Positions 3-54,419 of a stretch of 64,000 bases of DNA are shown piece by piece. The notes under the pieces were generated by a model. It did not search any database. It was not told where the DNA came from and was given only the letters and a program-made list of their open reading frames with translations. Every line of letters begins with the position of its first letter. Position 1 is the first letter of the stretch. Position numbers and translations under genes: made by a program. This stretch comes from Piedraia hortae CBS 480.64 (lineage: Eukaryota), in the NCBI GenBank assembly GCA_010093745.1, contig MU005976.1, positions 62,001 to 126,000 of the forward strand, in the 5' to 3' direction.

Positions 3-1595
3 TCTCCATCAAAAATTGCTGGTCTGAGCACAACCTTCCCCTGGAGTGATCTCAATGATTTCACCATCAGCGAGGAAGACGAGGAACGCCCATCTGAGCG
101 TGCTCTTGCAGCTAGGATCGCTCGACATACTGCAGCTGGGTCAAACGACCGCTATGCGCTTGCCGTCAAAGACCTTGTCAAAACACTGACCGATGTGCAA
201 GAAAAAGAGCCGTACTGGGAGGATCTGAAGCAACTCGATCTTCACCACCGGTCTCTTTCGTCGCTTGTCGGACTTGAGGACTTCTGCCGACGTCTGGAGG
301 AAATGGACGTTTCTCAAAACGACCTGACGCAGTTGGACGGTGCACCATCAAGCATCAGAATCCTCCGAGCATGTCACAATCGCCTGAGCAGTATAACACA
401 CTGGGGGCAGTTGAGCAACCTGCAGTATCTTAACCTCTCCAACAACCTGCTAGACAGCCTGCACGGCCTCAGCCACCTGGTACATTTACGCGAGATCATA
501 GCTGACGACAACCAAATCACCAGCATTGACGGCATCTTCGCACTCGATGGCCTGTTAAAACTCCGCCTGCGCCGCAACAAACTACAACGCATCGACTTTG
601 GCACTTCTTATCTCAAACGTCTCACAGACCTCGACCTAAGCGACAACGACATCAGCATCGTCGAAAACATCGATCGCCTGGACGATCTCACAACCCTCCG
701 CTTAGACGGGAACATGCTCCCAAGTGGCGTGCGCACATCACACTCCATGGCCAAACTCAAAACCCTCTCCCTCCGCGACAGCGGAGTCGAAACCCTCTCC
801 GTGGGTGTCTTCCCAGGTCTCCAATCCCTTAACGTAGACGACAACCGTCTCCCCACCATAACCGAAATCTCCAACCTCCACCTAACTGTCCTCTCAATGC
901 GTCGCCAGACCCTCCCTCAAGCCACCCCATTGTCAATCCTCTCCCAACCCCTCGACACCCGCATCCTAAACCTCTCCGGCAACGTCCTGCAAGCCCTAAA
1001 TTTCACCCACAGCTTCCTCGACCTCCGCACCCTCGAACTTGCAAGTGTGGGGCTACAATCCCTGCCCGAGGATTTCGGAATCTTAATGCCCAACCTTCGA
1101 ACTTTAAACCTCAACTTCAACAATCTAAGCGACATCCGTCCACTAGTCAATATCCAGAACTTGCAGACCCTCACCCTCTGCGGGAACAGGATCGATAGGC
1201 TCAGGAAATCAGCGGCGACGCTGTCTAAACTCCCAACGCTGAGGGAACTAGATATAAGGGATAATCCACTTACTAGGGGGTTTTATCCCCCCGTTATCAC
1301 GCAGCTTAGGGAGGGTTGTGTTGCGGTTGCTACATCCACGGAGGAGGTTGATGGGGATGGGGATGAGGGACGGTACTCCCTCCCCCCCGCATCCCAAACA
1401 GAGGATGTATCGCATATGGGCAAAAGCGACGATGAGACAAAATTGAGAAGACGGGTGTATGGGTTATTGGCCGCGCATAATTGTTCACATTTGGAGAGGT
1501 TGGATGGATTGCCGTTTGAGAGGGAGTTGGTTGGAGTTAGAGACGAGGTTTGGGAGAGGTTACTTGAGTTGGGGGTTGTGAGGAGGTCGAATTGA
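3..1595 (+). CDS. cdc11: Leucine-rich-repeat septation-initiation-network scaffold (Cdc11/Nud1/SepK-like), 5'-truncated by window edge
   Basis: Frame is open from base 3 (…DRYALAVKDLVKTLTDVQEKEPYWEDLK…), followed by many LxxLxLxxN repeats and a C-terminal LDIRDNP…LERLDGL LRR cap; family assignment from recall of Cdc11/Nud1 architecture. Confidence 0.75.
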   Translation, partial: SPSKIAGLSTTFPWSDLNDFTISEEDEERPSERALAARIARHTAAGSNDRYALAVKDLVKTLTDVQEKEPYWEDLKQLDLHHRSLSSLVGLEDFCRRLEEMDVSQNDLTQLDGAPSSIRILRACHNRLSSITHWGQLSNLQYLNLSNNLLDSLHGLSHLVHLREIIADDNQITSIDGIFALDGLLKLRLRRNKLQRIDFGTSYLKRLTDLDLSDNDISIVENIDRLDDLTTLRLDGNMLPSGVRTSHSMAKLKTLSLRDSGVETLSVGVFPGLQSLNVDDNRLPTITEISNLHLTVLSMRRQTLPQATPLSILSQPLDTRILNLSGNVLQALNFTHSFLDLRTLELASVGLQSLPEDFGILMPNLRTLNLNFNNLSDIRPLVNIQNLQTLTLCGNRIDRLRKSAATLSKLPTLRELDIRDNPLTRGFYPPVITQLREGCVAVATSTEEVDGDGDEGRYSLPPASQTEDVSHMGKSDDETKLRRRVYGLLAAHNCSHLERLDGLPFERELVGVRDEVWERLLELGVVRRSN

Positions 1596-1970
1596 CGTGG
1601 TCAGGAGGGGATGATAATGGGGAGTTTTGTTATGGATTGGCGTTGGGGCATACATAGGTGGGTGTTTTAATGATATTTCACTTTTTCGGTTGTCATGGAA
1701 TGTTAAGGGTTTCTCTGTAGATGGTCCGATGCTTTATACTGTAGAGGTGTCATGTGGCGTCGGCGGGATCGTGGTCTCATGGAATAGAACTTTTGGTTAA
1801 GGGCCTCCCCCCCTTTTGCCCGTCACATTAGTGGAATGTTGCGAGTCATTGAAAAGTCAACCCCTTATTTTCCTACCTAGCGTTACGAGAGAATCCTACA
1901 CAACCGCTTGAATTCCCACATGCGCCAAGCCCTTTTCCCCCTATTTATATTTTGACTCCATCAATTTCCA

Positions 1971-3100
1971 CTACCTATTCTCCTTCAACTCAGCTCTATT
2001 CTCAGCCAGAAGCTGCCGAATCATATGTCACCTTGAGTTAGCATCCTTTAATTTACTGAGCTGTGCGTTATATGCGTTCTTTGTCCTTCTCACGCGTCTC
2101 GAAACTTCATAAACTGAGGGCTTTAGTACCTCGCGAGCGTGAATGAGATTTTCGAATTCAGAAGCTGTCCAGAAACTACCAGAATCTTTTTTCAACATGC
2201 CAACTTTGTTCCAATGCTAATATTGAAACTCATGCGAGCTTTGGTAGTTTTTAAGGGGTAGGAGTTTATTTTTGGTGGGGTTTTGTCCGGTTTCGTCAGC
2301 GTCAATTTGTGCGCTTTCTGGGGGTGCGGAAGGAGGAGGAGGAGGAGGAGGAGGAGTGAGGCAGTGCTTGGTTGAAGTGACTTGCTTGCATGGTTTCGTT
2401 GCTGAATTTGGCGCGCGCAAGTCTATCTCTACGTAAGAGGTAATAGTTTGTTCGGGGGGATCAAGAACAGATTTTGATCTTGGTGTGTTTGAATGAAGGG
2501 GTTCGATGGTGATTGCCAAGAAGAGATTGTCCGATCAATGCAAGTGGTACGGAATCCGCTGAGCTCGAGCGTAGTTTTTGCTTGGCTGGTCGGAAAATGC
2601 TTGAGGCCTTCACTGGTTCGCCTTCGTCTTGGGGCATTCGTTCCAGACCTGCAGTCGAGGTGTCCGTGATTTCCGTCCCAACTTCTTTCTCCTTCAATCT
2701 TGGAGCAGGTTCAGTCGGCGCGATCGGCTGGCTTTTCTCGGTATATTCGGTACTTTGTACTTCCAATTGTCTCTTAAGCCCACTAACCGCATAAATCCGC
2801 AACCCTACTTCGCTTTCGCCATTTATTCTGGTGTCAGTCTCACCGAATGCGTCTCCACTATACTTTGCGAGAATGATAAAGTACTGTGCTTCTTCTTCGT
2901 CGCTGTCTAGATCGTTATAATCATTTTGACAGGATTCATCCTTTGGACTTGCGATGGCACAGAGCGACTCCGACACTACGATCCAGCGGCCAGCTCTACA
3001 AGAACAAGCGAGAGTATTCAAACGTCGGGCAAAAACCGCAGAAGACAAGCGCCGAGCCAACGATCTTTAGAAGGCTAGAGGTGATTGGAGAAGGCTGAGG
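1971..3100 (-). pseudogene. Decayed Myb/SANT-like DNA-binding protein gene, copy 1
   Basis: ORF pieces 2461-3060 and 2217-2519 (frameshift) continue in frame past TAG 2217-2219 into WTASEFENLIHAREVLKPSVYEVSRRVRRTKNAYNAQLSKLK (Myb-like helix-turn-helix), then a TGA; homologous to copy 2. Confidence 0.55.
2331..2356. repeat. (GGA)n microsatellite (poly-Pro on minus strand)
   Basis: aggaggaggaggaggaggaggaggag seen directly. Confidence 0.9.
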
Positions 3101-3206
3101 CACCACGTAAGATGTGCAGTCTCGGTCAAAAAGTGTGTGTAACTGTGTACATCTCTACATGCTAAGAGCTAACGCAACGTCTTCCACAGATCCACAGCTG
3201 GCCAGA

Positions 3207-3385
3207 CCGCATTTGCCGAGACCACACGATGACGTGATCTCGTCACAGGGGAAAACTCCTCTATGAGGCAGAAATCCCTGCGAAGCCTCGGGCGTTCTAA
3301 CTACCACCGATCTATCTCATCTGACACAGGGCTCACCGTGCTACCACGTCATACCATGCCGGACCAACCCGCCTCGTCTAAGTTT
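3207..3385 (+). repeat. Dispersed non-coding repeat, copy A
   Basis: ccgcatttgccgagaccac … tcgtcacaggggaaaactcctctatgaggcagaaatccctgcgaagc aligns by eye with 20046-20211 (+) and 9200-9420 (-). Confidence 0.7.
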
Positions 3386-3899
3386 ATTGAAAGGTTTCTG
3401 GCAGTTGTTATAGGGCTGTCGTCGGTAGGCAGAGCGGCCCATGCCGCTGATGCATCACGTTGGCGTTCAATAGTCATTGGAGCTAGACATCTTTATAGGA
3501 AGATATCTCAGTCTCGTTTCCGCTGGGTTGATCTGAGAGTCACCTTGATACTAGCAGCCCCACACGGTCGCTCCCACCTCGAACTTACACCAATCTTGGC
3601 GTGGATCACGATATGTTTCGACGAGTAAGCATATGGAGGAGGAGCGGAGGAGGTGGTTACTTAGGTGCCCCTTGGAAGGTGGAATCGTTCCCTCGCAACG
3701 GATTATATGGGTATTGGTGCTCGTGGACCCGTAAGAAATTGATTTACGGTTATCATCCATCTACTACGCGTCACTATCCGGTCAATTTGCCAAGAGTGAG
3801 CGTGTGAAACACACATACAGTTATAAGTGGGTTGGTCTTTGCTCGTTAGGTCAAAGATGCGTCATGTTCAGGTACATACAGGTGAGTGGAGACGAGATT

Positions 3900-5867: not shown

Positions 5868-7229
5868 ATGACGCTGCATTGCCAGAAATGTCGGGTAGAG
5901 CTGCGGTTGGACTCTTCGCTGCAGGCTCTCAATCCTGCGTCCTTTAAGATCCTCTCCGAGGCGGCGAAACCCGCGAAACTGCAGCCGGCAGAGCTCACTC
6001 CGCGCACCGCAACCGCACAAGAGCGCCGACGTCGCTATGATGAGGTCTCGCAACAGGCCGGGCCGCCTCTATACAAGAGAGAAGTCTCTTCATCGCATAT
6101 GGCCAAGGGTGACATGTCGTTTGTCAACGTCACAGATTCGATGACGGGCGATCAGGTTGTCAGGTCGCAAGAATACAGCCACCCAAAGACGGATGCTCGA
6201 AAGATGGAAATGGCCACGCGCTTGTTTGAAGTGCTGTCAGCACGCTCTGACATCGACCACCCCATTTGCCAAGATTGCACCGAGATTCTGCTGGAGGGAT
6301 TGCAGGAGCGCCAGGCCAGCGCAGTGCGGGAAAGAGATGCATACTTAGGCTTTCTAAAGCAAGCGCAGCAGAACATGCCCACCGATGAAGACACTAAAAA
6401 GACAAGGAAGGAGCTGGAAGGTGCCCAGCTGGAAGAGAAGAAGGCACTGGCTGAACTTGAAGTTCTCGAAGCGGAAAAGACGCGGATGGAGGAGGAGCTT
6501 GCGGCACTAGAGGCCGAGGCCGAGGAAGTAGAAGAGGCTGAAGAAAAGTTTTGGAGGGATCGGAACGCATTTGCCCAGGAATTGGCAGATTTTCGCCAGG
6601 AGAGGGACAGTCTCCAGGCCCAGTTGTCACACGACAGTAAACTGCTAGAATCTCTGCAGAAAACGAACGTCTACAATGACACCTTCTGCATTGGTTACGA
6701 TGGGCATTTTGGCACAATCAACGGACTACGGCTGGGTCGTCTGCCCGACCATCCCGTAGATTGGTCCGAGATCAATGCTGCTCTTGGTCAAACTGTGCTC
6801 CTTCTGGCGGTTGTCTCTGAGAAGCTGGGCTTCACAATTCCAGGCTACCGCTTGGTGCCTCAAGGATCAACGTCGAAGTTGATTCTACAAAACCCCAAGG
6901 CGGTAGTCACGGGTGCTGGGAAAACCAAAGGTACCGTCCACGAACTATATAACAGTGGGCACCTTCCATTTGGGCTGCATCTTTACGGCGGTTTTGACAG
7001 TGCCATGATAGCCTTCGTTGAATGTGTTGCTGCGGTTGGAAAGCACGTCGAACGCACTGGTGTCAAATTGCCGTATGAAATCCAGATTTCCAAAGACTCA
7101 GCCCGTGTTGGCGGGATGAAGATTTGCCTAGGTGGCGTTGGAAAAGAGGAGTCGTGGACCAAATCGTGCAAGTATCTGTTGACTTGTTGCAAGTTTCTTC
7201 TAGCATTGGTCAGTCGGTCAAGTGCTTGA
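5868..7229 (+). CDS. atg6: Autophagy protein Atg6/Vps30 (Beclin-1), 453 aa, intronless
   Basis: CQKC N-terminus, DIDHPICQDC, long coiled coil, KTNVYNDTFCIGYDGHFGTINGLRLGRL, WSEINAALGQ, WTKSCKYLLTCCK motifs. Confidence 0.96.
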   Translation: MTLHCQKCRVELRLDSSLQALNPASFKILSEAAKPAKLQPAELTPRTATAQERRRRYDEVSQQAGPPLYKREVSSSHMAKGDMSFVNVTDSMTGDQVVRSQEYSHPKTDARKMEMATRLFEVLSARSDIDHPICQDCTEILLEGLQERQASAVRERDAYLGFLKQAQQNMPTDEDTKKTRKELEGAQLEEKKALAELEVLEAEKTRMEEELAALEAEAEEVEEAEEKFWRDRNAFAQELADFRQERDSLQAQLSHDSKLLESLQKTNVYNDTFCIGYDGHFGTINGLRLGRLPDHPVDWSEINAALGQTVLLLAVVSEKLGFTIPGYRLVPQGSTSKLILQNPKAVVTGAGKTKGTVHELYNSGHLPFGLHLYGGFDSAMIAFVECVAAVGKHVERTGVKLPYEIQISKDSARVGGMKICLGGVGKEESWTKSCKYLLTCCKFLLALVSRSSA

Positions 7230-7893
7230 TCACCACCCGTAAGGATCATGGCGTTCTTCGTCACAAACGTTGATGGCCAAGTCGCGGAAAGTTTGCGCAG
7301 CGCAGACGGGAAGAGCAGAGCCAATTAGTGATAAACTTGTAAAAGCCGGTCTTGCTGTCCTATAAAAACAATAGAGAACAGTCAGGCTGCAGTGGAGCTG
7401 ACATAGCGCTCTGTCTTGGCACCTCTCGAATTGGAGCCTCGCCTTTCAGAGACTGTTCCGCAACGCACCTCACGTGCGAAGACTCTGGGTCAAACGACAA
7501 GAAAGTTCAAACAGCCCGCGCGCGAACAATTGGTGCTAGCCTTCATAGCTTATGTAACAATACCGGAGGTGATGTAAATCTTGGTGGATTTGCATAAAAG
7601 TCTTGATTATCCTGTGCCTTTCAAGCGTTTCGCTGGCACGGCGTGACAAATAGAATAACAAACAGCCCGAAAAAGAAGCTTAACAACTTGGCAAGTAGTT
7701 CTCCAAAAATAAATCAGGCATCTGTCTTCAGTCCCCCGCCCTTTCCCTCCCCGACACCATGAAGAGAAACACAAATAAACCCTCTAAACCCCGAATGCGG
7801 GCGAGTGCCTCTAAAGCAAGCCAAAGCCATATGCAGTGCAAAAGATGAGCTTTGCCGCTCCGTACTAAACGATACCTGAAAAGCCATCCGCTG

Positions 7894-8488
7894 ATCCGTT
7901 CCCGCAGAGGAACAAACTGAAAAAACTAGCGCCCGCATCTCACCTCGCAACCAAGACAATGAGTTCGAGCGTTACGAAGTTGAGCGTATTATGACCTATC
8001 TGAAGACAACAATCGAGCGCTTCGAGATTCTTGCCAAACAAATCAAGCAACTGCCTACCGACGCTGGAAAAGAAGGATTCACCCTCCCACATCGCTTAGT
8101 AGGAACTTCCTTTGTCGACTACAGGAACGTTATTAATCGAGATTATGGCGAGGAGAAAGGTCCCGAAGTTTTTGCGTTTCTACACGACTATGCTGCTAGA
8201 GCGGCTCCGATTTTATTGGATGTGTTGCGAGAGGCGTATGAGAGGGGCAAGGAGGAGAAAGTTGCTTTTAAAGCGGCTTGGTTGGAGTAGGCAAGTGTGT
8301 TTGTTGGAGAGGCTAAGGGACGGAGAAACCTTGCGCGGGCATCGGATTTGCCGGCGGGTCTTTGCCCCGTCTCATCGGTTGGTGGTCGGCGTGCCAGGGC
8401 GTTCAAGGCATGGCGGGTGAGGTTGAAAGAATCGGCAGACGTGAGAAAATGGCTTCGAGCTCGTCGATGTCTTCGCTTACGAAATTGA
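7894..8488 (+). pseudogene. Orphan protein-like ORF interrupted by an in-frame TAG (8288-8290); function unknown
   Basis: ORF 7991-8290 continues in the same frame as ORF 8297-8488 (AAWLE*ASVFVGEAKG…); protein-like composition but no recognisable motif. Confidence 0.3.
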
Positions 8489-9199
8489 CCGAGACAACTA
8501 GTCCAGTGGCATAGAGTGTTGGATGAGGTCAAGTAGATGGTAGATATTTCGCGTACGAGTCGTCGATAACAGGGATCTCGATGCCTTTTGAAAATGTGTG
8601 ATGTATTATGAAAGCTAGGCATTAGTCATGTTAAAGATTTTAGGGTATAAGTTAAAGAAGCACGAGGTGACAGCCACCGGTACGCCAATCTCCTTAGCCA
8701 GAGGATCCGTATGCTCTCGAAGATATTGGCAGTATTAGTGTGGAAGCATCACGTCCCCATTACTTGAATCTGAGTTGGATTGATAGCTCGCTCAAGAGTT
8801 GTTGGTCGATTACCTAATCAACTCAAAGATTCCAGACAGACAACCCAATTCTGCTTTGGTTCAAACTTCAGCAAGCGAACTCAGTTGATGCATTTAGTGA
8901 GCCAAGATAAATTATACACTTGCATGGAGGTCCATCGGAGCTACAGCTGCGGTTTTATGCTTGCTGTCAGAAGGATGTGGCACCCACCATGACCAGGATG
9001 CTAGACGGAAGTCGAAACTGTTACGGTGTTCAGAGCAAAGGGTTAAAAAAATCCCAACAATGAGGACAATCCGAACTGCTATCTACTGGGAAGCTAGGAT
9101 ACTATAAACCAATCCAGAAGCGCCATCCATACGCGCGTGGTAGCGAGCGTAGCTATGAATAACCAACAGGGCGCATCGGTGTATCAAATTCCCTTTGCG

Positions 9200-9575
9200 C
9201 TTAGGTGGCGCGGGTCGTCCCGCGCGCACTCACAGCCTCGCCGTAATAGAAATTCCTCAGGATTTCTACCTCTATAGAGAAAGTTTTCCCTGAGACGGAT
9301 CATTGTCTTGTTCATGCTTAAGGGCATGGTTTGCTGACGTTGTCCTGGCGATTGCGGTTAGACTGAGGTAGTGTGGAGAAGGTTTCGAGCCTCACCTCAC
9401 ATAGATTTAGACATCTACATTCACCTTTTAATCAGAGTTGAGTGTACATATTTGTATTTGATCTACGTTCCGCTTTATTCCTCGGAGGTTCACCTCTCCG
9501 ACACTTGCCAATTCAGCCGGGGACGTTGCGTACAGATGATTTATACATGATTCAGGTCGCCGTAGGGACGCATGA
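9200..9575 (-). repeat. Dispersed non-coding repeat, copy B (inverted)
   Basis: Reverse complement atgtagatgtc…cacactacctcagtctaaccgcaatcgcc…agcatgaac…ccgtctcagggaaaactttctctatagaggtagaaatcctgagg aligns with copy C. Confidence 0.7.
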
Positions 9576-11060
9576 CGGAAGGTTGAAATCATGTTTATCG
9601 CGGTATTTGTTCGTCTCGCTACCGAAGAAGCAGCACAACCTTACAGATGTTTTCGTGTGCATGTGTGTTACAAATTATAAAAACCAATGAGTACTCAACC
9701 ACCTCGGTCTCCAACGCGGAGCCTTCCGCGGCGACCTGCATAACCGTACCAGTTAGGTTTAAGTCCCACTTTTTTGATTTATGCATGATTCTCGGGCCGA
9801 GCCGTTCCACAAACCTTACGGATTGTCGAAGACACACAGTATTGCATCATCATCAACAACTCTAAACAACTGCGTTCGCAAACATCATCAGAAAATTAGC
9901 CAACCAGTATTCCAGTTTCCCGCGAATTCTCAAGTCAACAACCAGTAAGTTCCGGAGTCTCTCTTGCTCTGCATCTGAACTCCTCTGCGCAGGATGCGGC
10001 GATGCCAAGCAAATAGGGTTAACAGCTTGTCGCCGGGCTGCTTTCGACTCTCTAGAAGAAGAAAAATGAGGCCAGCCTCAACTAAATTCGCAAAGGACAA
10101 GCGGAGTATCGCCTTACCGTTTACTGTCCGCGCGGCCGTCACCTTCCCGTCACCCGCCACTTCGGCGTTGGCGACCAGTCCCATCCACTATCAAGCGATT
10201 GGGATGCATCTTGTCAAGTTCGCCAACAACTCTGTTGCTTGTGGGTTGCCATCACCTTTGCTGTGGCTCGCTCTCGCCTTTGGGCGAGTTGTGGTTTTAT
10301 TAATCCGACTCGAGGACTAAAGCCTAAGGAGAGGCGGACCACGCCTGCCTGGGCAGCCAGCAAGCGTCTGGCAATCCCAGTGTGGAGCGAAAGTTCCAGC
10401 ACACTGCGGCGTGTGTCAGATGGCCAGTTCAACTGTGACTGGTCGCATTTCTGGTTTTGTCTTGGTGAGTTGTAACCTTTCTTGCTTCTTAGATTGTTGT
10501 GTTGTTTTTGATGGCCGAGGTATGTATCCATCCTCTATGGTGTATTGACAGCAGGAATCTTTAGACCATGTAAATGAAATACATAGCTATGATATGTACA
10601 TCTTTCCCCATGTTGCTGTCAGAATACATCTTTCTGGAGATAGAGCTCCGGCTCAGCGAGAATATAAGCTCCTCTTCGGAGATACGAAGTTGTAGGCTAA
10701 AGTTTTTGTTCTGTCTATGTACAGCAAATAGTATACAAATTTCACCATCAGTTTTGGGCAAAGAATTGTTGTGCCAAATCTTGCCCAATCCTTTGTATCC
10801 TCAATCGGGTGATGTAGGGCTGGTCCCCGTCACAAATCATGTTCAGATGCAGAGGCTGATTCCCGCATATCGTAGTTTCATGCATGTTTCTTCTCATCAT
10901 GCACGTAGTGCATCGTCCCCTCCGGGATTCATCTCTGGCCTAGTATTTAGCTGAGTCATTCCCCCGAAGAGAGAGGGGGATGCACCCCTATATTCGTTCA
11001 CGTCATTGTTCCCCTTACTTTCATTGTATCCTCGGCTAGTTCTTTGCTTAGCCCGAGCTC

Positions 11061-11087
11061 GCTGCCATAGCTGCCATAGCTGCCATA
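11061..11087. repeat. Tandem repeat (GCTGCCATA)x3
   Basis: Three perfect 9-bp units seen directly. Confidence 0.9.
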
Positions 11088-11790
11088 ACTGTCTTCTGCG
11101 CCAGGCAGAGCCGCTCTGGTCGTGTTGCCGTCCTCGGTAACTTTGTACTTTTGGCAGAAGCATTTGTGGGCTTTGCAGAGGGATTGAATGAGTCTGAAAA
11201 ATCATATCTTGCTGTTCGCCGGGTGTTGAGTGTGAGATAGTAGCATTGTACAAAAATGGAGCAAAATCTCTTAGGTGTCTGGGACAGAAATGTCTTCCGC
11301 ACGCCCTATGCGGCACAGATAACTTCACTGGAGTAAACATAGCGACTAGGCGAAAACACATAATTTGAATGCATCCATTGCTTGGGCTTCAATTGGATAG
11401 TCTGGGCGAGAGAGAAAATTCGGGGATTAACCTAGTACCATGTTGGCAATGATGCTTTGACAACGGCCATAGAGAATTTAAACATCATGCCACGCGGGGA
11501 TCGGGACGAATGGAATTATATGTCAGACCTCTTGACACGAGTTGGATTATCCAGACTTTTCTCCATAATCTATTGATGGATAGCATTCGAATGACAGTAC
11601 GTGCACAACACTTATCGTTACACAATAGCAACGCATGAAAGTGGAACTGACTTGACATAACACGTTCAGAGGTCATATTCATGAATACGACGCGACGTGA
11701 CGCCCCCACGTCGACTTGCTTCTATTTGTTCCGCTTCCGCCTCTTCCACCTCTTCCACCACATCCCGTCTCGGAAACACTTCAGCTCATC

Positions 11791-12552
11791 ATGTCCAGCT
11801 GCACTGATCCAACTGCTGCCATGCGCGGATCCCACGAGGACATCGCGAAGGCAGTCGGTAAAAAGGCCCTGTTGGAGCTCGCTGCTGAAGCCAGAGCTTC
11901 GCGTGTTCCGGGTGAGCCTGTGCCTCCCGTATTGCAGTAATTACTCCCCTCACAATGGGCCCCAAATATTACTTCCAATTCTAACGAGACCTTTTCTAGT
12001 AATGTGGTCGGCACCGTGGACCTCGACATCATTATTAAGCTCCAGACGGTGGGTGAGAGGGCCATCAATGTGGAATACAATCCGAAACGCTTCACTGCGG
12101 CGAGGATCCGCCTCCGTGAGCCGAAATCCTGCACGTCAGTCTTTCCCAATGGCATGCTGGTTGTGGCTGGAGCAACGTCCCGCGCGAACTGTCGTCTTGC
12201 TGCGCGTAAGATTGCGCGCATGATGCAAAAGATCGGGTTTAAGCCACGTTTTTTGGGCTTCAAGGTCACCAACATGGTAGCGAATGCCCATCTGGGCTAC
12301 CGAGTTCATCTGCATGCACTGAAGGTCTCTCTGGAATTGGATGAGCATGTCTCGATGTGCTTCTTTGAACCTGAGTTGTGCTGTGCCCTGACATACCGAC
12401 TCGACAAGCTTTCAGTGGCCGTGTATGCCACTGGAAGTGTGGTGTTCGGTGGCGCCACCTCTGAAGATGGTATGGATGAAGCTTATAAGCATATTACCAG
12501 TGTTGCTCATTTTTTTCGCCTCGGGGAGGCCACAGATACCCAGCAATATTAA
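11791..12552 (+). CDS. Diverged TATA-binding-protein-like factor 1 (232 aa; exons 11791-11936, 12000-12552)
   Basis: Intron 11937-11999 (GTAATT…CTAAC…TAG) joins PVLH|NVVGTVDL. Both TBP repeats present: EYNPKRF, FPNGMLVVAGA, AARKIARMMQKIGF, FKVTNMVA, FEPELC, VYATGSVVFGGA. Confidence 0.9.
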
Positions 12553-13326
12553 TGGTCGCGGTCAGGAGATAGCGTGTTCGACACAGGATAACGGCCCATC
12601 GGTACAAGGTGTTCTTAAGGCATGGCGGGACTGGGTAAGCTAGAGCTCTCATGCTAGCTGGGCGTAGAAGTGTATACAATCTACAGACTAACTATTCTAT
12701 TCATGAAAGTTCTCTTTCCACTGATCCTGTATCGATTAACACTTGGGCCGTGCCCTTCTCGGAAAATTACATACTCTAATATCTTCAGTTTGCGTCTCAA
12801 GGACTGAAGCCTTAGGGTCTCAGCTAAGTGAGGAAGACGATGCATGTGTTTAGTAAGTGACTAATGGAGTGCTATCTTATGGCAAAGCGCGTAGAAAGCT
12901 ATAGAAAATGATAAACTGTAAACGAAACCCGCCAGCGTTCCTCAATGTTAGAGACCGAGGCGGGACCAAAAAAGAACTACCAAGTCAGTCAGATTCCAGA
13001 CTCCAACAATTATGCACCCAGAGATGTCGTGGACAATTCGTGCAGCTTGGAAGACTAAAAGCAAATAGATTGCATCTAATGCGCATCTCCTTCATGTGCT
13101 TATGCCTGCCCCGCTACTAACAGGAACTCGTGTGCACAATTCCAATGAGTGGAATCTTCAGATCAAATGTCCAGGCAAGCAATTGAGTTTGCACATACAA
13201 ATGTCTTACAAATGTAAAGTGTATAGTCTTGTACATAGAGGCTACATGTGGACTGCCCTTTCCTGTATAGAATATACACAAGGCTCAAGAGGAACCATCC
13301 CGCCCACAGCTCTGGATATGGCCACT

Positions 13327-14042
13327 TTACTTAGCCCGTGAGTCTCTTGAACGGCTTGTATCATCGGCAGAGCTGGACACTTTTACATGGCTTATGAGGA
13401 TCGGACGGATGAAGTCCAGCGCACGATCAATGTCTTCTTGGGACTTGGCTCCAGTAAAAACAATATTGCCGTTATCAAAAATTACCAGCGTCATCTTCGG
13501 ATCGAAGATTTTGAAGGTCATTCCTGGAAATAGTTCGGTTTCGTAAATTGTCTGCGCCCCATACTTACCAATGTTCAGCTTATTCAGATCAAGCCTAACT
13601 CCTAGAGAGCAAGCAGCAACTACGTTGTTAAGTTCGTACTTGTATAGACGAACCTTGTAGCCTATCCGCTGTAGGGATCGGGCGAACTTGCGTGCGGCGA
13701 GCTTGTTGTCCTTTGGCGAAGAGCAGCCCATTACGTTCATGATGCCGGTAGAGAACAGAAGGGCGGTCGCTGGCGGATTACGAAGACGCAGGATTGCTGC
13801 AGGAAATCTTTTGGGATTATATTCCACATTCCACACATTTTGTGCTACTTTGTGGAGGTCCAGGATGACATCCAGATCAACGCGAGCGGTGGTGTTTCTG
13901 GGGCGAAACATCAGTATTATGATAAGGGTATCTGAAGTCACTGAACTTACGTGATGTAGGGTGCCGAGAGGTCCTTTGAGGGGTCCAGTGATTCCAGTGC
14001 ACGCTTGGCCTCAGCGAGACATTTTCTGTGTGACTTCTCCAT
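13327..14042 (-). CDS. Diverged TATA-binding-protein-like factor 2 (about 220 aa; exons 14042-13951, 13897-13327)
   Basis: Intron 13950-13898 (GTAAGT…CTGAT…CAG) joins PYIT|NTTARVDL. Motifs EYNPKRFPA, TALLFSTG, AARKFARSLQRIGY, NNVVAAC, YETELFPG, LVIFDNGNIVFTGAKS; start codon less certain. Confidence 0.9.
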
Positions 14043-14822
14043 TGGCGCTGATAATATCTTCTGGCAGCAAGTCTTCTGGGTGCAGCTTCAGGATCGTATG
14101 ATGTGTTCAGCAAATGTTCAACGCTCCTGTATCAGTGCCCCTGTTTGTGCCGGCCTTGACGTAAGGCTCACATCCCCAGCATACTGCCATCATAAGGTGG
14201 TCCGAGCACTTATTGATTTTGCATGCACACTGGGAAAGCATGTGAAGTATGCTACATCAAAACAAAACTCTGCCCAGGGTCCGCAATATGATCAGATCTA
14301 TTCGACCGATCCAATACTGAAAAGAGGGGTTCGGACATTGCCTCAGACTGCAATAAAGGCTAGTCCATGAGAAGGGCACGTTTGAGAATATATAAATCCT
14401 GTTTACTAGTAGTAGAGCTGGATTGGCCCCAACTTGGGGTTGCGAGCCGCTGTGGTGGAGAACTTCTCCCAGCTGGTGAGTTTGGTCGAAGTGTTCTTGT
14501 TTGCAAGTTTTCACGAACAAGTAAATGACACAGCCAACCCCGCATCAACGATACACAGTTACCTAGCAAACCGCCCAGAAGCATCCGCCTGGTTCTGATG
14601 GGCCCGAAGTTACACAGCTGCAATAATCATCATTCATGTGGAACTGGCTATGGAGTATCAAATACTCCAACCCGCAAAAGAGCAGTTTATTCTACTTACG
14701 TCATTGGTTGGTTTCATGCATGCACGCCACTTTTACCCCACATTATCAGACCTCAGCCGCACGGCTCACAACCTCCCAATCTTCTTAAGTATAGCTTTCT
14801 CACACCTTTAACGGTGCCCAGC

Positions 14823-17800
14823 ATGCCCGAATGGCTGAGGCGATTGAAATCGAAGAATAAATCGCAAATCTTGAATGTACAATCGTCCACTTTCAAAGTT
14901 TCCACGTCACATACCTCGGCTTCAAGTTCGCAAACTTTATCACCTTCGCAGCTACATAATGCGCCGGTACAGACTCCAGCTCCAACAGTAGTTTCGGGGA
15001 ACCCTTTTCGAGATAAAAGCCAATTGATGCTTGACGCCCTTGCCAGTCTTCCCGCCGACGACCGCAAATTTGTGCAAGAGCTACTCGGTCCAAACAGTGA
15101 CGTTGTGAGAGACGTAGCGGTAGTGATGGCCCTGAGGGGGCGAAATCAAACTAAAAGGTCCGATCAGTATATTGTCGGGATGCAGAAAATGGCTTGCCAG
15201 ATGATGCAATTTGCGCCGGTACTTGACGTCGTGACGAATCTGAAACCGGAAGCTCTTAGTTTGCCGTGGGCCGGTGTTCGCTCTCTATTGATGGTAAGCA
15301 GCAAGTCCATAATTGTAATTCTTGGTAACATCATCTTTATAGGTGGCACAAAAGGTTTACGAGCACAGTGAGTCGCTTATGAAGGGAATCGAAACTGCGC
15401 TAGACACAAGCTACCTCATAAACGCATACTTTGACATATACAGCCAATTCAATGATACGGCCACGGTTCGGCATTTGTATGACAATATTGTCAGACTATA
15501 CAGCCTCATTTTGAAATTTTTGGCGCATGCCCATAACACATGCGACATGAACAGCATGGAACGAATGGTACACTCCTTAACAGGTGTGGTTATACCAAGC
15601 TTCAAAACTGATCACGACGAAATACTGAAGACTGTTGAATCACATGCAAAGCTTTGCAATCTCGAAGTGTCCGAGGAGCAGCGGGCTTGGGTTGACAAGC
15701 AACTGGAAGCGCTAAATAAGGCCCAAAAAGAGATCAATGATGGAGTCAAGAGCGTGCAGCGAACGCTGGATCTAAATGCTCTCCCGGTAGCTCCTGGGGC
15801 GGCTTATGACTCAATAGACTACCATAATGGTGACCAAATTGGCGAATTACAATTGTGCCTGGACGGTACCCGAGTCCATATCAAACAGAGGATACTAGAT
15901 TGGGCCACCACTTCCAATGACCAAAGGGTATTCTGGCTGTCTGGAAAAGCAGGGACGGGTAAATCCACGATTGCTCGAACCATTGCGCATGAGCTAGGGG
16001 AACAGGGGTTCTTAGTAGGGAGCTTCTTTTTCAAGCGCGATCGCGGTGAACTGAGCCGTGCGCGTAGTCTCTTTCCTACCATAACCCGTCAAATGGCGAA
16101 TTTCATACCCAGCATTGCCCATAAAATTGCTGCCGCCTCTCACGGATCACCTCCTGTTAATGAAAGGCCATTGACAAGTCAATTCGACACGCTTATTAAA
16201 GAGCCCCTTTCGGGGTACAGCACTGGTCTTGCGACAGATGTCAGGGTGATTGTTATCGATGCCCTCGATGAGTGTGAGGACTGGAGAGCGATAGATCACG
16301 CCATGACCCTATGGCCGAGACTTATTGCCCATACCTCAATGAACTTGAGAGTGTTTGTGACGAGTCGGTCGGATGATAAGATCGGAAGTAAGCTCGGCCA
16401 ATTAGGACCTCATGATCTCCAGCACGAGAAACTTGAAAGCTTGCAGACGAGCACTATCAAGAAAGACTTGACCATATACTGTCTTGACGAACTCAGGAAG
16501 CTTCGTGAAGAAAGCAAGCACGAGTTGAGCTACGATGAACTGGGAGATTCCTGGCCAGGAGAAGAAGTTGTCAATAAACTCGTTGAGATATCTCACCCAC
16601 TGTTCATTGCGGCTTCCACAATATTCAGGGATATAAGCAACAGTCCACGAAGACGAGTACGGCAATGGGTCGACCAGCTCAGTTTCACCGGTTCGAGAGC
16701 GCTTACCGAGATTTACTTGGACATCTTGAATCGAGCTGCTAGACACAACGAGGAGTGGGCTGATCAATTTCACCAAGTAATAAAGCCGATTGCTCTATTA
16801 CACTTCCCGCTCACCATTCCGGCACTTACAGATTTGCTGGGAGACGGAGACAACATGGCTGTTCCTAACGCTCTCAAACCTTTGAGTTCGGTAATCGAAT
16901 TTCCAAGTGGCAAAGATCTGAAAGCGGGCTCACGGGCTACAGTTCGGATATACCATGAATCGTTTCGAGCCTCTCTGGTGGATCCAACTCTCAAGGGCAA
17001 ATCTCCGTTTTGGATTGAGAAAGGAGAGACACACGCTACCCTCCTGAACAAGTGTATTGGCTTGCTCAAAAACAAGCTTAGCCGCGATGTGTGCAAGCAG
17101 CAAGATCTTGGAACGGAGCGCAAATTCGTGTCAGTCGAACATGTCTCCGAGCACATCCCAGAGTCGGTACAGTATGCTTGCCGCAACTGGGTCCACCATG
17201 TAGTTCATAGCAGTCAGACAATACAAGACGGTGGACAAGTGGATCGTTTCCTTCGTGAATTTTTCCTTGTTTGGACAGAGGCAATGGCTTGGCTGGACGA
17301 GCTCGGGGAGATGGTTCTAAGCCTCAAACAATTGCAAAAGGTCATAGACGTAAGTATTGTTTTCGTTGTCGGTTGGAGAGAGTGTAACTAATTCTTTTCA
17401 GACAAATTTCTCGCGGGGAGTGCAATATTTTGTCGCCGATGCTTTGAGATGGATTTCAGCACATCGAATCTTGATCAGCGACACACCACTCCAAACATAT
17501 CTCTCGGCATTAGCCTTTGCGCCAAGCAACAGCACCGTGCGAAACACCTTTAAACATGAAGTGGAAGCCCTCTTGCAAGTCTGGCCACCAGTAACCAGAG
17601 ATTGGGGCCCCGTATTACAAACGCTTAAAGGGCATACACGTTGGGTATCGGTGATAGCACCGTCGATGGACGGCAAAAGGCTTCTGACCACCGCTTTGGA
17701 TAAAACGGTACGTCTATGGGATGTTGAAAGCGGTACCGAGGAAGAGTTGATGGAATTTAACTCAGAATGCACCTTTTCAGTTCCCACTGAAGAAGGTTTT

Positions 17801-19474
17801 GCAATTATTGCCGAGTTGCGCGGAGGGTATTCGAGATGGAGATTGGAAGAAGACGTCAGACGCATCGATTTAAAGCTTCCTGGCGTTGCAAAATGCGTTT
17901 CTGTCTCTCCAAGTGGCCGATTTGCTGCATGGGGCCTCGATATGGGGGGAACCTATCTGTGGGACGGCGACATTGAGGCCGGAGAGTTGCTTGAGGTCCA
18001 ACCCTCTCCAGTGCGGTGCATGGCATTCTCATCCGACAACGAGACATTAGTGTCCGGGTCTTCCGATATCTGGAAATGGAACGCAAAATCTGGGCATAAA
18101 AAGATTTGCCACGTGGATGCAGACATTTATCACCTCGCCATTTCGCCGAACAACGTTTATGTGGTCTTTTGGTCCAATGGCGCATTACGTGTTTTTTGTC
18201 ATATTACCCAAGAGATTGATCAGATCATGCGAGTGGCACTGGGTGGGCTTCACTTTTCAACGGTTACTCCAGATAGTCAAAAGGTTTTGTTCTCGAACGA
18301 GCAAGACCTCTTCCTGTACGACTTTGGAACCAGATCTGCACCGACAAAACTGTCCTTAACAGGCTATTCCCTCATGGAATTGATATTTTCGCCTGATGGG
18401 AGAACAATCTGGGCTGGGGATATCCTTGGATCGGTGATTCAAATGGACGCAGAATTGGTGATGAAAAGTCAGCAGCAAGGTACTGGCACCGCTACTGTCG
18501 CAATGTCAGCGGATGGCAAAACACTCGCCTCATTGTCTCGGTATAATCAGCTCAGTCTTTGGAACACTGAAGCGCAGATCTGCAAACAGCGATTATCAGA
18601 TGAGCGACTCGTCAACTTTCCTGCATCTCGAAGCCTCCTCTTGATCTCATCAGATTGTTCGTTGGTAGTTGTGGCGTGCCTAAACTATACCCCGGGCAAC
18701 GCGTTGATGATATGGAATATCAAACTCAATGAACTGAGAGGGCTGAGACACAAAGCGGACAATATTTCTGCTATTGTGATCGCCCCAGATAGCAAGACTC
18801 TCCTTTGTGGTTTGCACAACGGTCAGATCTGGATCTATGACTTGAAAGGGGGCGTCCGGCAGAAGATAGTTGATGCGCATACGGACAGGATCAGAGAGAT
18901 CGTGTTTCATCCAGAAGGGCAAGGTTTTGCGTCGTTATCAAACGACAAAACGATCAAAATTTGGACTCCTCGTTCGCAAACACCATTGGTGCTAAGCGAC
19001 AAGCTCTGGGTGCATAGGGCATGTTTCTCGGCAGACGGTCATATGCTCTATACTCTACACAATAGCATTGTTGTCTCCGAATGGGACATCAAAAGGACTT
19101 GTAAGGTGCGAGAACTTGACAAGAAGATCAAGTATGATTGTTCTGGTTCCTTATTCCTGAATGGCAGCTTCGTGCATGCCAACTTCCTGCATTTCTTGCA
19201 CATGTTAGACGCCGATAAAGGCAATCAAGTTGAGACGCAGGCAGATATGTCGGGATCAACCGAAGCCCCTTCAGTGTTTGGAAACCGCCAAGTTTGGGCC
19301 TTGCAATCATTTCGCTACGATCAAGTGTGGATTACTGTTAATGGTCGGAAGATGCTCAAGCTCCCTGTTCAGCTGATTCAAGTCAATTGGGTTTCATGCG
19401 GGCGAACAATGGCAATTCCCAACAATGAGACAGGATTTACAGTATTAAATTTCACACGCAAGGTCTCTTTGTAG
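14823..19474 (+). CDS. NLR-like NACHT-WD40 protein (HET-E-like architecture), 1516 aa; exons 14823-15293, 15343-17349, 17402-19474
   Basis: Introns 15294-15342 and 17350-17401 are GT-AG and keep frame. Helical N-terminal domain (SLPWAGVRSLL), Walker A GKAGTGKST, Walker B VIVIDALDEC, FVTSR, YACRNWVHH, and C-terminal WD40 repeats (LKGHT…DKTVRLWD; HTD…DKTIKIW). Confidence 0.92.
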
Positions 19475-19959
19475 GGCAAAGTTGTCAATATGCCGGAACT
19501 GGCTTGAGATTCCCGCCAAGAGAACTACTTTGTGGTAGGATATTCATTGGCGATGTATATCATATTGAGTTGTCTTTTTAACAGGACGTATTGCACTGTG
19601 CTTTAATAGAATACTTCCACGACATCATATCATCCTTCTCCTTTTACTTCATGCACCGCATCATCATTGGCCTTGACTGTACCCGCAAGCCCATATCTTC
19701 GTATTTCTGAAGCGGCCTGGGTCCCCAATACCAGTGTCGCTGGACAGTGCGAATGGCTATGTGTGTAACTGGCTCTCCACGAGGGGACGTCAGAATAGAC
19801 ATTATGTACCGGTGGGCTGGTGACGTCACGTCATACACTAGCAGAGCGCATTCACCATGTCACATATGACATGACCCTGAGGGAAAAACTTTGTGAGGGA
19901 AAAACCTAGGGTGCAACTGGTAGTGTATGAGGTATCGCTGACTTGCTATGCAAGTGCCC

Positions 19960-35087: not shown

Positions 35088-35183
35088 ACCTGCAAACCCG
35101 GGATGGTCGTCACCGGAGTCCGAGTCCTCTTCGTCGGTTTCCAGCCACTCTTCGCAATCTTCTTTGAACGCGAAGAACAGATC

Positions 35184-43759: not shown

Positions 43760-44391
43760 TGTGATTCCGTTCCAGAAGATACCTGAAGAGTAAGAAAGAT
43801 CTGGCCTTGGAAGTCTGTTTTATAGCCTTGTTCCTGTGACGAGTGAAGTAAACTTGGCTTGGGGCAGTATGTGCCGACTCGAGTAAAGTGGTCGAGGCCA
43901 TGTTCTTTGTTTCGTCAGTGGGCTTTGTTGACCTGTACAAAAAGAAGGGAAGTCTTTGACAAGGAACTTGACAAAGATGGAGATGGGCTCGATTTATCAG
44001 ATGGTTCGCTGTCATGGAAGAAAACGGAGTTACAATTGCTTTGATGTGACAAAGAAAAGTTGCTTGTGCCGGGCTATAGCTATATGCGGATAGGAATTTG
44101 ACTACAGACTAGTGTGGTGTGCGTTATCTAGACCTGCATCTTTCAACACTCGTACGTCATGTGGATGTACCTGTGGAGATAACGGTGGGTGGCGACTCAC
44201 TAGTGACCAACTGCCCGTGAGATCAGTGACTACATTCAGCTGCTGACCGAAGCTATTGCCAATTGCCAGCTGAAGTTTGGTGAGATTTCATGACTCAGTC
44301 GTGGTAACCTGTTGGTGGGGCATGGAGACCAACATGACGTAGCACGCGGGGGCAAGGCTCAACGTGCCCAACTGCGAACAAACACTCAACA

Positions 44392-51348: not shown

Positions 51349-51747
51349 GTTGACAATAAAAGAGTCGATCGTGCGGTGGAGGCTTTGTGCGCCATGGGCA
51401 AGCAGACAGATATAGACCGGCCATGACCGCGACCGGCCATTTCCCCAGCGTTGGACTTGTCCTGACCGGAAGGAGAAGAAAGCCGTTGTGCGGCTTGATC
51501 CAGCCGTCCGGAATAGGCTTGGCGTGACAGCGGGCGCTAACCGAAAACGGCAATGACTCGCCCCGCGCGCGATGCGACGACGACGACGGCGACAGTTTCA
51601 ACGAGCTGACTATAAACGTGATAGCACGCGCGTGACCGGCATTTTTGGTTTCTGTAGATTTTTCTCCTGTCACCTTCTGCTCTCCACGCTGCACGAAACC
51701 GCAACTGAACCTAGTATCAGCTTTCCGTAGCTTCAAGCGTCGCCGTT

Positions 51748-54361: not shown

Positions 54362-54419
54362 NNNNNNNNNNNNNNNNNNNNNNNNNNNNNNNNNNNNNNN
54401 NNNNNNNNNNNNNNNNNNN
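54362..54419. other. Assembly gap (58 N)
   Basis: Run of N flanked by G-rich sequence. Confidence 1.

Follow-up and report, generated by a model that had tools for sequence, protein, structure and literature searches.

The window, a stretch of 64,000 nucleotides of the genome of Piedraia hortae CBS 480.64, harbours two TATA-binding protein (TBP) genes, here called A and B, which were the only TBP loci detected by a tblastn search of the window. Both are full genes with PF00352 found twice in each, and they lie tail-to-tail with a spacing of 774 bp (Table 1). The original prediction had proposed this arrangement, together with one phase-2 intron per gene at a matching position before the first conserved Asn, and reading frames free of internal stops and frameshifts; the gene models and reading frames bear out each of these points. 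The codon split by the intron, just before the conserved Asn, is CA/T (His) in A and AC/A (Thr) in B (slashes mark the intron), and the junction peptides are HNVVGTVDL in A and TNTTARVDL in B, as had been read before. The product of gene B is 100% identical to P0001, an annotated protein of P. hortae CBS 480.64, with residues 1-31 corresponding to exon 1 at 100% identity. Exon 1 of gene A fits the protein P0122, of which residue 1 aligns at position 11791 and which has the same junction (PVPPVLH/NVVGTV).

Table 1. Features of the TBP gene pair, in positions of the window.
Feature	Positions	Strand	Description
Gene A	11791-12552	+	232 aa, complete two-repeat TBP gene
Gene A exon 1	11791-11936	+	ATG at 11791; 48 codons and 2 bases; non-canonical N-terminal segment
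Gene A intron	11937-11999	+	63 nt, GTAATT...TAG, phase 2; predicted
Gene A exon 2	12000-12552	+	full two-repeat TBP core, short tail, TAA stop
Spacer between the A and B stop codons	12553-13326		774 bp; 3' ends of both genes
Gene B	14042-13327	-	220 aa, complete two-repeat TBP gene
Gene B exon 2	13327-13897	-	full two-repeat TBP core, Ser-rich tail, stop
Gene B intron	13898-13950	-	53 nt, GTAAGT...CAG, phase 2
Gene B exon 1	13951-14042	-	ATG at 14042; 30 codons and 2 bases; predicted N-terminal helix
Probable long 5' leader of B	14043-14631	-	on the same RNA-like contig as B; extends into the beginning of the NLR gene, which runs divergently

No repeats were found in the spacer and no Rfam family was detected in it (search of positions 7000-15000). 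The sole pairing between A and B in the repeat search was a 57-nt stretch, 72% identical, that encodes the conserved NVEYNPKRF, and a pairing limited to this extent argues against recent gene conversion.

Gene B is transcribed and spliced, and at least one of the extra copies is therefore expressed. A contig of the RNA-like run X2 (record 12) skips the intron of gene B exactly (13897 to 13951, CT..AC on the + strand), whereas a contig of the DNA run X1 reads through it unspliced. In run X2, two GT..AG introns in the adjacent gene are spliced out as well, and X1 skips none of the three; as X2 skips introns that X1 retains, the predicted transcription and splicing of gene B are borne out. Record 12 covers exon 2 of gene B, continues over positions 13951-14631, and ends at 13320 within the spacer, with the reservation that contigs of either run are uninformative on transcript ends and strand. 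Over positions 9793-13131 run X2 is free of contigs, and it says nothing about the expression of gene A.

The canonical TBP of P. hortae CBS 480.64 is P0412, a protein of 258 aa encoded on a different contig (190,301 bp). Its core is identical to that of Acidomyces at 163 out of 167 positions (97.6%), and shares 92.2% identity with that of a budding yeast. A third extra copy, A2, corresponds to P0122; it is 83% identical to A, was read as protein, is annotated at full length (230 aa), and lies on the contig of A and B outside the window. At least three extra diverged copies (A, A2 and B) are thus present beside the canonical TBP. The original prediction of extra, fast-evolving copies in addition to a canonical TBP elsewhere is supported by P0412 on another contig. 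Its description of a convergent pair holds for the tail-to-tail order of A and B, but the set is at least a trio, with A2 on the same contig. The reading that A and B are sub-functionalised housekeeping TBPs of a genome lacking a canonical copy can practically be dismissed, since P0412, which its source names as a protein of this strain, is fully canonical.

The exon-2 products of both genes matched the Pfam TBP family (PF00352) in two stretches, with 1.3e-34 and 118.3 bits for A, and 5.9e-47 and 157.9 bits for B, at a curated cut-off of 22.9 bits; with two tandem TBP repeats each, both genes thus lie well over the threshold of the family. The comparison of B with yeast TBP (1tbp_A) gave 2.9e-40. 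In the AF2 models, A and B have the saddle-shaped alpha/beta fold of TBP. The model of the A core (pLDDT 92.7) superposes on human TBP (7egb_P/1cdw_A) with an rmsd of 1.2 A over 175 columns, and that of B (pLDDT 90.3) on 1cdw_A with 0.9 A over 177 columns. The best PDB matches are TBPs, with target-normalised TM-scores of 0.96 for B and 0.91 for A, and recovery of the saddle is expected of models built on TBP alignments. The model of B also contains an N-terminal helix at residues 2-17 (pLDDT 76-81).

In TBP, two Phe pairs kink the TATA box (PMC3142196, available text). According to the alignments, B possesses all four DNA-kinking Phe and both minor-groove Asn, with the motifs ELFPG and VIFDNG. 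A and A2 possess both Asn and two of the four Phe, the second-lobe pair being replaced by Cys and Tyr; A has ELCC and VYATG where B has ELFPG and VIFDNG. The second lobe of A and A2 also carries an insertion, a deletion, and changes at neighbouring DNA-contact positions. All three extra copies retain the basic helix H2 motif, KLAARK.AR..Q[KR]IG, and the TFIIB-stirrup motif, E-x-E-L. The roles of individual residues, including the partner contacts of helix H2 (on the TFIIA/Mot1/NC2 side) and of E-x-E-L, are partly general knowledge. The loss of both second-lobe Phe in A and A2 is presumably as in TRF2. In the first lobe of B, Val to Thr, Val to Asn, and Thr to Met changes fall at what we take to be DNA-contact positions, and for this reason TATA competence of B is not assured.

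Identity of the core to canonical P0412 is 38.8% for A, 40.6% for A2, and 42.5% for B, and A/A2 share about 37% with B. The strong departure from the canonical core and from each other that had been proposed for the two genes is thereby confirmed. Canonical TBP cores of fungi are 92-98% identical to one another, and A, A2 and B do not show this Spt15-type core conservation. In a word-index search, the matches of B following its own protein were 38-46% identical, and the next near-full-length matches of A reached at most 41%. A full HMMER scan of 1.84e9 representative proteins revealed no closer relative of A or B, the 150 best matches having identities of 45% or less. In a set of 443 other TBP-family proteins, the score against canonical TBP was in no case exceeded by that against A or B. 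Conservation is far stronger in the first lobe than in the second, at 96.4% against 78.8% between A and A2 (p 7e-4), and 49.4% against 35.7% between B and canonical TBP. Forty-two fungal-invariant columns are changed in both A and B, nine of them to the same residue, and most of these nine are conservative swaps; the shared changes are no more than suggestive of a common ancestor of A and B.

The codon and phase of the intron in A and B correspond to intron 1 in 11 out of 12 canonical TBP genes of filamentous-ascomycete type, taken from metagenome contigs. The second canonical intron (EYNPK/RF) is absent from both. An intron shared in position and phase with the canonical genes points to duplication of the resident gene at the DNA level, and supports the earlier proposal of such a duplication rather than retrocopying. 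In AU tests, an origin of A, A2 and B within Pezizomycotina was not rejected (p 0.657), nor was a position beside the canonical TBP of P. hortae (p 0.612). The protein trees suffer from saturation (branches are 7-10 changes per column long), so that placement is limited to this non-rejection. The grouping of A/A2 with B received support of 97/95 in one tree and 96 in another, values that carry a long-branch warning. Placed singly, B fell beside an amoeba and A beside a chytrid, both without support.

Acquisition of the copies by horizontal transfer from a non-fungal donor is suggested by the best foreign matches of A, which are plant and oomycete TBPs (37-41% identity, word-index search). Nonetheless, A stands no closer to these than to eukaryotic TBPs at large, the intron matches the canonical filamentous-ascomycete-type genes in position and phase, and the AU test leaves the Pezizomycotina origin unrejected, which makes a foreign donor extremely improbable. 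Common descent with the animal TBPL1 clade was likewise not indicated in a set that held no named TBPL1 sequence: none of the 443 proteins is closer to A or B than to the canonical TBP, the intron is shared with fungal canonical genes, the AU test is compatible with an origin inside Pezizomycotina, and the trees do not resolve the placement.

Selection on A, A2 and B is indicated by the pattern of substitutions. In a neutral simulation run to the observed identities, the 167-codon core stayed free of stops in 50 and 56 out of 3000 runs, a survival of about 2% per gene with indels not yet counted. Sixty-one columns show conservation of at least 98% across 51 other TBPs; A retains the residue at 39 of these, compared with 25 out of 106 elsewhere (p 4e-7), and B at 41, compared with 30 out of 106 (p 1.7e-6). 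Nineteen listed differences between A and A2 comprise nine synonymous, two non-synonymous and eight intronic changes, counts that are biased towards constraint because they cover only stretches at least 90% alike, which correspond to the conserved first lobe, and leave five further differences unlisted. The introns of A and A2 differ at 8 out of 63 positions. Run X1 contains a DNA contig of 125 nt, apparently derived from A2, which crosses the intron of gene A without gaps, and eight of its nine differences are intronic. The searches found no orthologue of B that would serve a dN/dS comparison.

The extreme divergence, the lack of detected orthologues elsewhere, and the position next to a fast-evolving NLR-type gene would also fit copies that are non-functional or nearly neutral and heading to decay. 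This is very unlikely, as the frames and splice sites of A and B are intact and A2 is annotated at full length (230 aa), stop-free survival under neutrality is low, and the retained residues are strongly concentrated where TBPs are universally conserved; in addition, synonymous changes exceed non-synonymous ones between A and A2, their introns differ, and B is spliced in the RNA-like run. The same splicing, frames, retained sites and nine to two ratio agree with the original prediction of intact genes rather than young pseudogenes.

Similar to canonical TBP (Spt15 in yeast; P0412 in P. hortae), A and B possess two PF00352 repeats and the saddle fold, both minor-groove Asn, the first-lobe Phe pair, the E-x-E-L stirrup and the helix H2 motif, and their intron 1 has the position and phase found in canonical genes of filamentous-ascomycete type. 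In contrast to the long low-complexity N-terminal domain of canonical TBP, the extra copies have short segments of 31-49 aa, predicted to be helical in B. A and A2 differ further by loss of the second-lobe Phe pair and by an indel there, and the second canonical intron has no counterpart in A or B.

The metazoan TLF/TBPL1/TRF2 proteins resemble the extra copies in their core identity of about 40% and fast evolution, and presumably resemble A/A2 in the loss of TATA-kinking residues with retention of TFIIA/TFIIB-type motifs. The copies of P. hortae are taken to be of independent fungal origin and not orthologous to them, given the resident-gene structure and the absence of closer proteins among the 443. 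In the available text of PMC3142196, TLF/TRF2 is described as about 40% identical to the TBP core, as not binding TATA, as binding TFIIA and TFIIB, and as absent from yeast. The same text presents insect TRF1 and vertebrate TBP2/TBPL2/TRF3 as lineage-restricted duplicates with TATA-type binding that serve particular polymerases or cell stages. These offer the best analogy for B, although the TBP2 core is about 95% identical to that of TBP, compared with 42% for B. Haloarchaea, with TbpA-F, possess several diverged TBP paralogues per genome as P. hortae does, but they belong to a different domain of life and archaeal TBPs work with a different partner set (TFB). Plants and Mucorales have more than one TBP gene per genome, near-identical to each other, with for example two clusters each in Phycomyces, Mycotypha and Rhizophlyctis. 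The listed duplicates of this type score like canonical TBP against B (43-44% identity, E ~1e-36), whereas the extra copies of P. hortae are far more diverged.

With moderate confidence, we read A, A2 and B as lineage-specific TBP-related factors that were duplicated from the resident TBP, diverged extremely, and were kept by selection alongside the canonical TBP, to which the housekeeping work would presumably be left. As B keeps the four Phe, the two Asn, E-x-E-L and helix H2, it is probably a DNA-bending, TATA-type-competent alternative TBP. Its remodelled outer surface and N-terminus suggest that pre-initiation complexes assembled by it would draw on different partners or regulators. A and A2, with both second-lobe Phe replaced and indels in that lobe, probably work like animal TRF2/TLF, without canonical TATA bending; they would still engage TFIIA/TFIIB-type partners and serve or modulate a subset of promoters. 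We infer all partner and promoter roles of A, A2 and B from their sequences.

The extra copies could instead act mainly as negative modulators or decoys, which titrate TFIIA/TFIIB (or Mot1/NC2) away from the canonical TBP. This would be consistent with the helix H2 motif and the E-x-E-L stirrup being kept in all three copies as other surfaces drift, with the far better conservation of the first lobe, and with repression by TFIIA sequestration, reported for TLF in the available text of PMC3142196. B keeps four Phe and two Asn, DNA-contact residues that a pure protein decoy would not need, and we regard a decoy role as unlikely. The retained DNA-bending residues of B would also suit a polymerase-specific substitute for TBP in TFIIIB or in the Pol I core factor, for which insect TRF1 (Pol III) is a precedent (PMC3142196, available text). 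Such a role for one of the copies seems improbable, as the canonical TBP is fully conserved on every surface and nothing suggests that it has surrendered a polymerase.

The preferred reading of selected, lineage-specific factors can be extended, with considerable doubt, to an independent ascomycete counterpart of the animal TRF system. In this extension, B would be the TATA-competent member and A/A2 a duplicated, TRF2-like, non-TATA member, with complementary changes to the DNA-contact sets in lobe 1 of B and lobe 2 of A, and each would possibly drive its own promoter class or stage, such as hair-nodule or ascostroma formation. The suggestion of the original prediction that transcription is redirected to a special class of promoters or a stage is likewise speculative.

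Textbooks present TBP as the classic case of a frozen basal factor. In a survey of fungal transcription factors, TBP is one of the families that stay at one or two genes without expansion (PMC5415576, available text), and TBP-related factors have been placed in animals and 'not in yeast' in the available parts of PMC3142196 and bioRxiv 10.1101/2025.10.03.680374. Our literature search met with no report of filamentous ascomycetes that possess diverged TBP paralogues, a weak negative that includes the available parts of PMC6672047, PMC7221094 and PMC3597702. The genome of P. hortae, with 16.95 Mb and 7,572 genes, is given as the smallest of the Dothideomycete class (PMC7082219, available text), and two supplementary files of that paper contain no occurrence of PF00352, TBP or TATA. 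The smallest genome of its class hence keeps three extra TBPs whose distance from TBP equals that of animal TRF2, and which clearly arose within the fungus. If functional as initiation factors, they would represent a separate origin of diversified core-promoter factors, and one that is genetically tractable. They would then provide a natural experiment on which TBP surfaces are free to change when the essential work falls to a canonical copy, on the speed of evolution per lobe, and on loss of the second-lobe Phe pair as a repeatable route to a non-TATA factor.

The neighbouring accessory genes had been described as decayed, which was not confirmed. On the side of gene A, the open reading frames of at least 110 aa in the 7.3-11.4 kb stretch gave no Pfam match. 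On the side of gene B, the adjacent NLR-type (NACHT-WD40) gene is intact, and forms a single frame of 1591 codons at positions 14598-19474 after removal of two RNA-supported introns, with its first ATG at 14598.

Two complete, convergent genes of the TBP domain family, A and B, are present in the window, both with full-length open reading frames and with 774 bp between their stop codons, as the original prediction had it. In each gene, a phase-2 intron interrupts the codon just before the first conserved Asn, with the splice junctions ...VLH|NVVGTVDL in A and ...YIT|NTTARVDL in B. Two TBP repeats each were detected by Pfam PF00352 in exon 2 of A (1.3e-34) and of B (5.9e-47). B matches yeast TBP 1tbp_A with an E-value of 2.9e-40, and thirty-six distinct PDB sequences at E <= 0.001. 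AlphaFold2 models, built on TBP alignments, reached pLDDT values of 90.3 (B) and 92.7 (A core), and superimpose on 1cdw_A (B, 0.9 A over 177 columns) and 7egb_P (A core, 1.2 A over 175 columns). Search of the window with tblastn revealed no TBP locus besides A and B.

Features of the window, with positions as window coordinates
Feature	Position	Strand	Remarks
Unassigned stretch between the Atg6/LRR side and A	7.3-11.4 kb		no assignment from Pfam
Gene A	11791-12552	+	ATG 11791, TAA ends 12552, one intron, 232 aa
Intron of A	11937-11999	+	63 nt, GTAATT...TAG, phase 2
Gene B	14042-13327	-	ATG 14042, stop 13329-13327, one intron, 220 aa
Intron of B	13950-13898	-	53 nt, GTAAGT...CAG, phase 2
DUF7708-NACHT-WD40 NLR-type gene	14598-19474	+	DUF7708, NPHP3_N/NACHT, WD40 repeats; divergent from B
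Ty3/gypsy-type retrotransposon remnant	32644-35183	-	protease, reverse-transcriptase and RNase H ORFs across adjacent frames
Het-C heterokaryon-incompatibility gene	44338-46793	+	two ORFs, Pfam positions 2-262 and 282-559
Assembly gap	54362-54419		58 N, directly past Ulp1-protease-domain ORF (51715-54318)

Besides an ordinary TBP, the genome of Piedraia hortae possesses at least three extra ones. The annotated protein P0001 ('putative TATA-box binding protein [Piedraia hortae CBS 480.64]'), encoded on a 287,431-bp contig, is identical to B at full length (100%). The same contig encodes P0122 ('TATA-box binding protein-like protein', 230 aa, same strain), which is 83% identical to the A core. 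On the window P0122 maps to the A locus alone, at only 74%, so its gene, A2, is a third copy outside the window. Both versions are present in one DNA data set, in which short contigs of the DNA sequencing run X1 differ from A exactly at the positions expected for A2. The intron of A2 equals that of A in length and position. For the canonical gene, canonical fungal TBP genes were taken from metagenome contigs and one of them, L050, was used as query. Among the 120 matches listed, the closest named ones belong to Dothideomycetes, and they include P0412 ('TBP-domain-containing protein [Piedraia hortae CBS 480.64]', 258 aa, E 3.7e-127), encoded on a separate 190,301-bp contig. Its core is identical to that of Acidomyces in 163/167 positions, and shares 95.8% identity with a Sordariomycete and 92.2% with a budding yeast. 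The expectation that a canonical TBP lies elsewhere and that A and B are additional was thus borne out.

Over 167 core columns, identity to P0412 is 38.8% for A, 40.6% for A2, and 42.5% for B; A shares 37.6% with B and 87.3% with A2. The word-index search with B (1673 matches among 1770 candidates) gave as next-best matches after B itself, among the 120 listed, canonical TBPs of all eukaryotic groups at 38-46% identity. With A, the next near-full-length matches did not exceed 41% (66 matches among 383 candidates). A full HMMER scan of 1.84 billion representatives with A gave 3173 matches at E <= 1e-3 and four at <= 1e-30, with none above 45% identity among the best 150 of the 3173; B ranked about 26th, at 37%. 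For none of 443 other TBP-family proteins was the score with A or B higher than that with P0412. A, A2, and B fall within the TBP domain family, but belong neither to the orthologous housekeeping TBP nor to the animal TBPL1, TBPL2, and TRF1 clades, to which they may at most be similar in their way of working. A limited literature search, with sources available in part, found no prior description of such fungal TBP-related factors. An unusual lineage-specific expansion of TBP is well supported as real.

Two runs of the same organism cover the region, X1 (DNA) and X2, labelled 'RNA?'. A single 1259-nt contig of X2 spans 13320-13897 and 13951-14631, exactly skipping the predicted intron of B. X2 also skips two GT..AG introns of the neighbouring NLR-type gene (15293-15341 and 17350-17401), while one unspliced X1 contig runs through 12207-19800. 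X2 thus shows the pattern of an RNA data set, meaning that B is transcribed and that its annotated intron is removed.

Several observations point to selection on the extra genes. Reading frames and splice signals of A and B are unbroken, and the annotation of A2 gives a complete protein of 230 aa. When neutral substitution (indels ignored) was simulated from a canonical core until identities matched those observed, the 167 codons remained stop-free in 50/3000 (B-like) and 56/3000 cases (A-like). At columns conserved at >=98% in 51 other TBPs, A keeps 39/61 residues, versus 25/106 elsewhere (p 4e-7), and B keeps 41/61 versus 30/106 (p 1.7e-6). Nineteen differences between A and A2 were listed from stretches >=90% alike, with five more outside this list: eight are located in the 63-nt intron, nine are synonymous third-position changes, and two are non-synonymous (R69K and P98T, both agreeing with P0122). 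Identity in lobe 1 versus lobe 2 is 96.4% versus 78.8% for A-A2 (p 7e-4), 48.2% versus 29.3% for A-canonical, and 49.4% versus 35.7% for B-canonical. These values point to unequal constraint, with lobe 1 more conserved than lobe 2.

In the alignment, B retains all four TATA-kinking Phe, both Asn, the C-terminal stirrup E-x-E-L, and the basic helix H2 motif KLAARKFAR..QRIG. Both Phe of the first lobe, both Asn, E-P-E-L, and H2 are likewise kept by A and A2. In their second lobe, Cys (ELCC/ELCS) and Tyr (VYATG) take the place of the two Phe, the last strand has Gly/Ser for Thr, two residues are deleted, and 3-5 residues are inserted. At positions which we take to be DNA or partner contacts, B has non-conservative changes in lobe 1 (Val->Thr, Val->Asn, Thr->Met) and A is changed mostly in lobe 2. 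According to one review, the Phe pairs kink the TATA box, and animal TLF/TRF2, at ~40% identity to TBP, fails to bind TATA but does bind TFIIA and TFIIB (PMC3142196). From the pattern of Phe and contact residues, B would act as an alternative TBP that bends DNA and presents changed surfaces to its partners, and A/A2 would resemble TRF2 and not bend TATA in the canonical way.

For the origin of the extra genes, introns were compared with those of twelve genomic canonical TBP loci on metagenome contigs, filamentous-ascomycete-like in N-terminus and core and including one near-duplicate pair, L066 and L067. In eleven of them, a phase-2 intron falls inside the Gln codon preceding the Asn of QNIVATV (ca|gt...ag|a or g, then AAC), matching A and B exactly in position and phase. 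This match indicates that A and B derive by DNA-level duplication from an intron-bearing fungal TBP gene, in agreement with what had been proposed. A second intron (phase 0, between EYNPK and RF) is present in 10/12 loci and missing from both A and B; L074 lacks both introns, and the second site of L045 is unreadable. The common loss hints that A and B may trace to one already modified copy. A second possible sign is that nine of the 42 fungal-invariant columns altered in both changed to the same residue. A third may be the grouping of A/A2 with B, supported at 97/95 in one tree and 96 in another, under a long-branch warning and with saturated branch lengths of 7-10. Placed singly, A or B each joins unrelated taxa without support. 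In AU tests, a position of A/A2/B within Pezizomycotina (p 0.657) or beside P0412 (p 0.612) was not rejected. A subgroup of canonical ascomycete-type TBP genes (L074, L049, L069, and L072; N-terminus MDPNSL...) has neither of the two core introns shared by the other genomic loci; in their place, L074 carries one at a site further upstream. Loss of introns from TBP genes is therefore not confined to the additional copies of P. hortae.

The neighbourhood was annotated with Pfam on 54 long ORFs, and an LRR protein and Atg6 were found upstream of A and B. Neighbouring genes had been described as decayed; this does not hold for the NLR-type gene, which forms a single intact frame of 1591 codons after removal of its two RNA-supported introns. 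The RNA contig of B ends at 14631, about 30 nt beyond the first ATG of this frame, and thus both transcription units may overlap head-to-head. The division of Het-C into two ORFs fits a single intron rather than a disrupted gene. At 8965-9405, summed contig depth is about 1000-3700 in both X1 and X2, versus about 13 in the flanks, with many variant contigs and assembly breaks at 8964/8996. The segment is single copy in the window, matched no Rfam family, showed no terminal repeats, and is probably a multi-copy transcribed genomic repeat.
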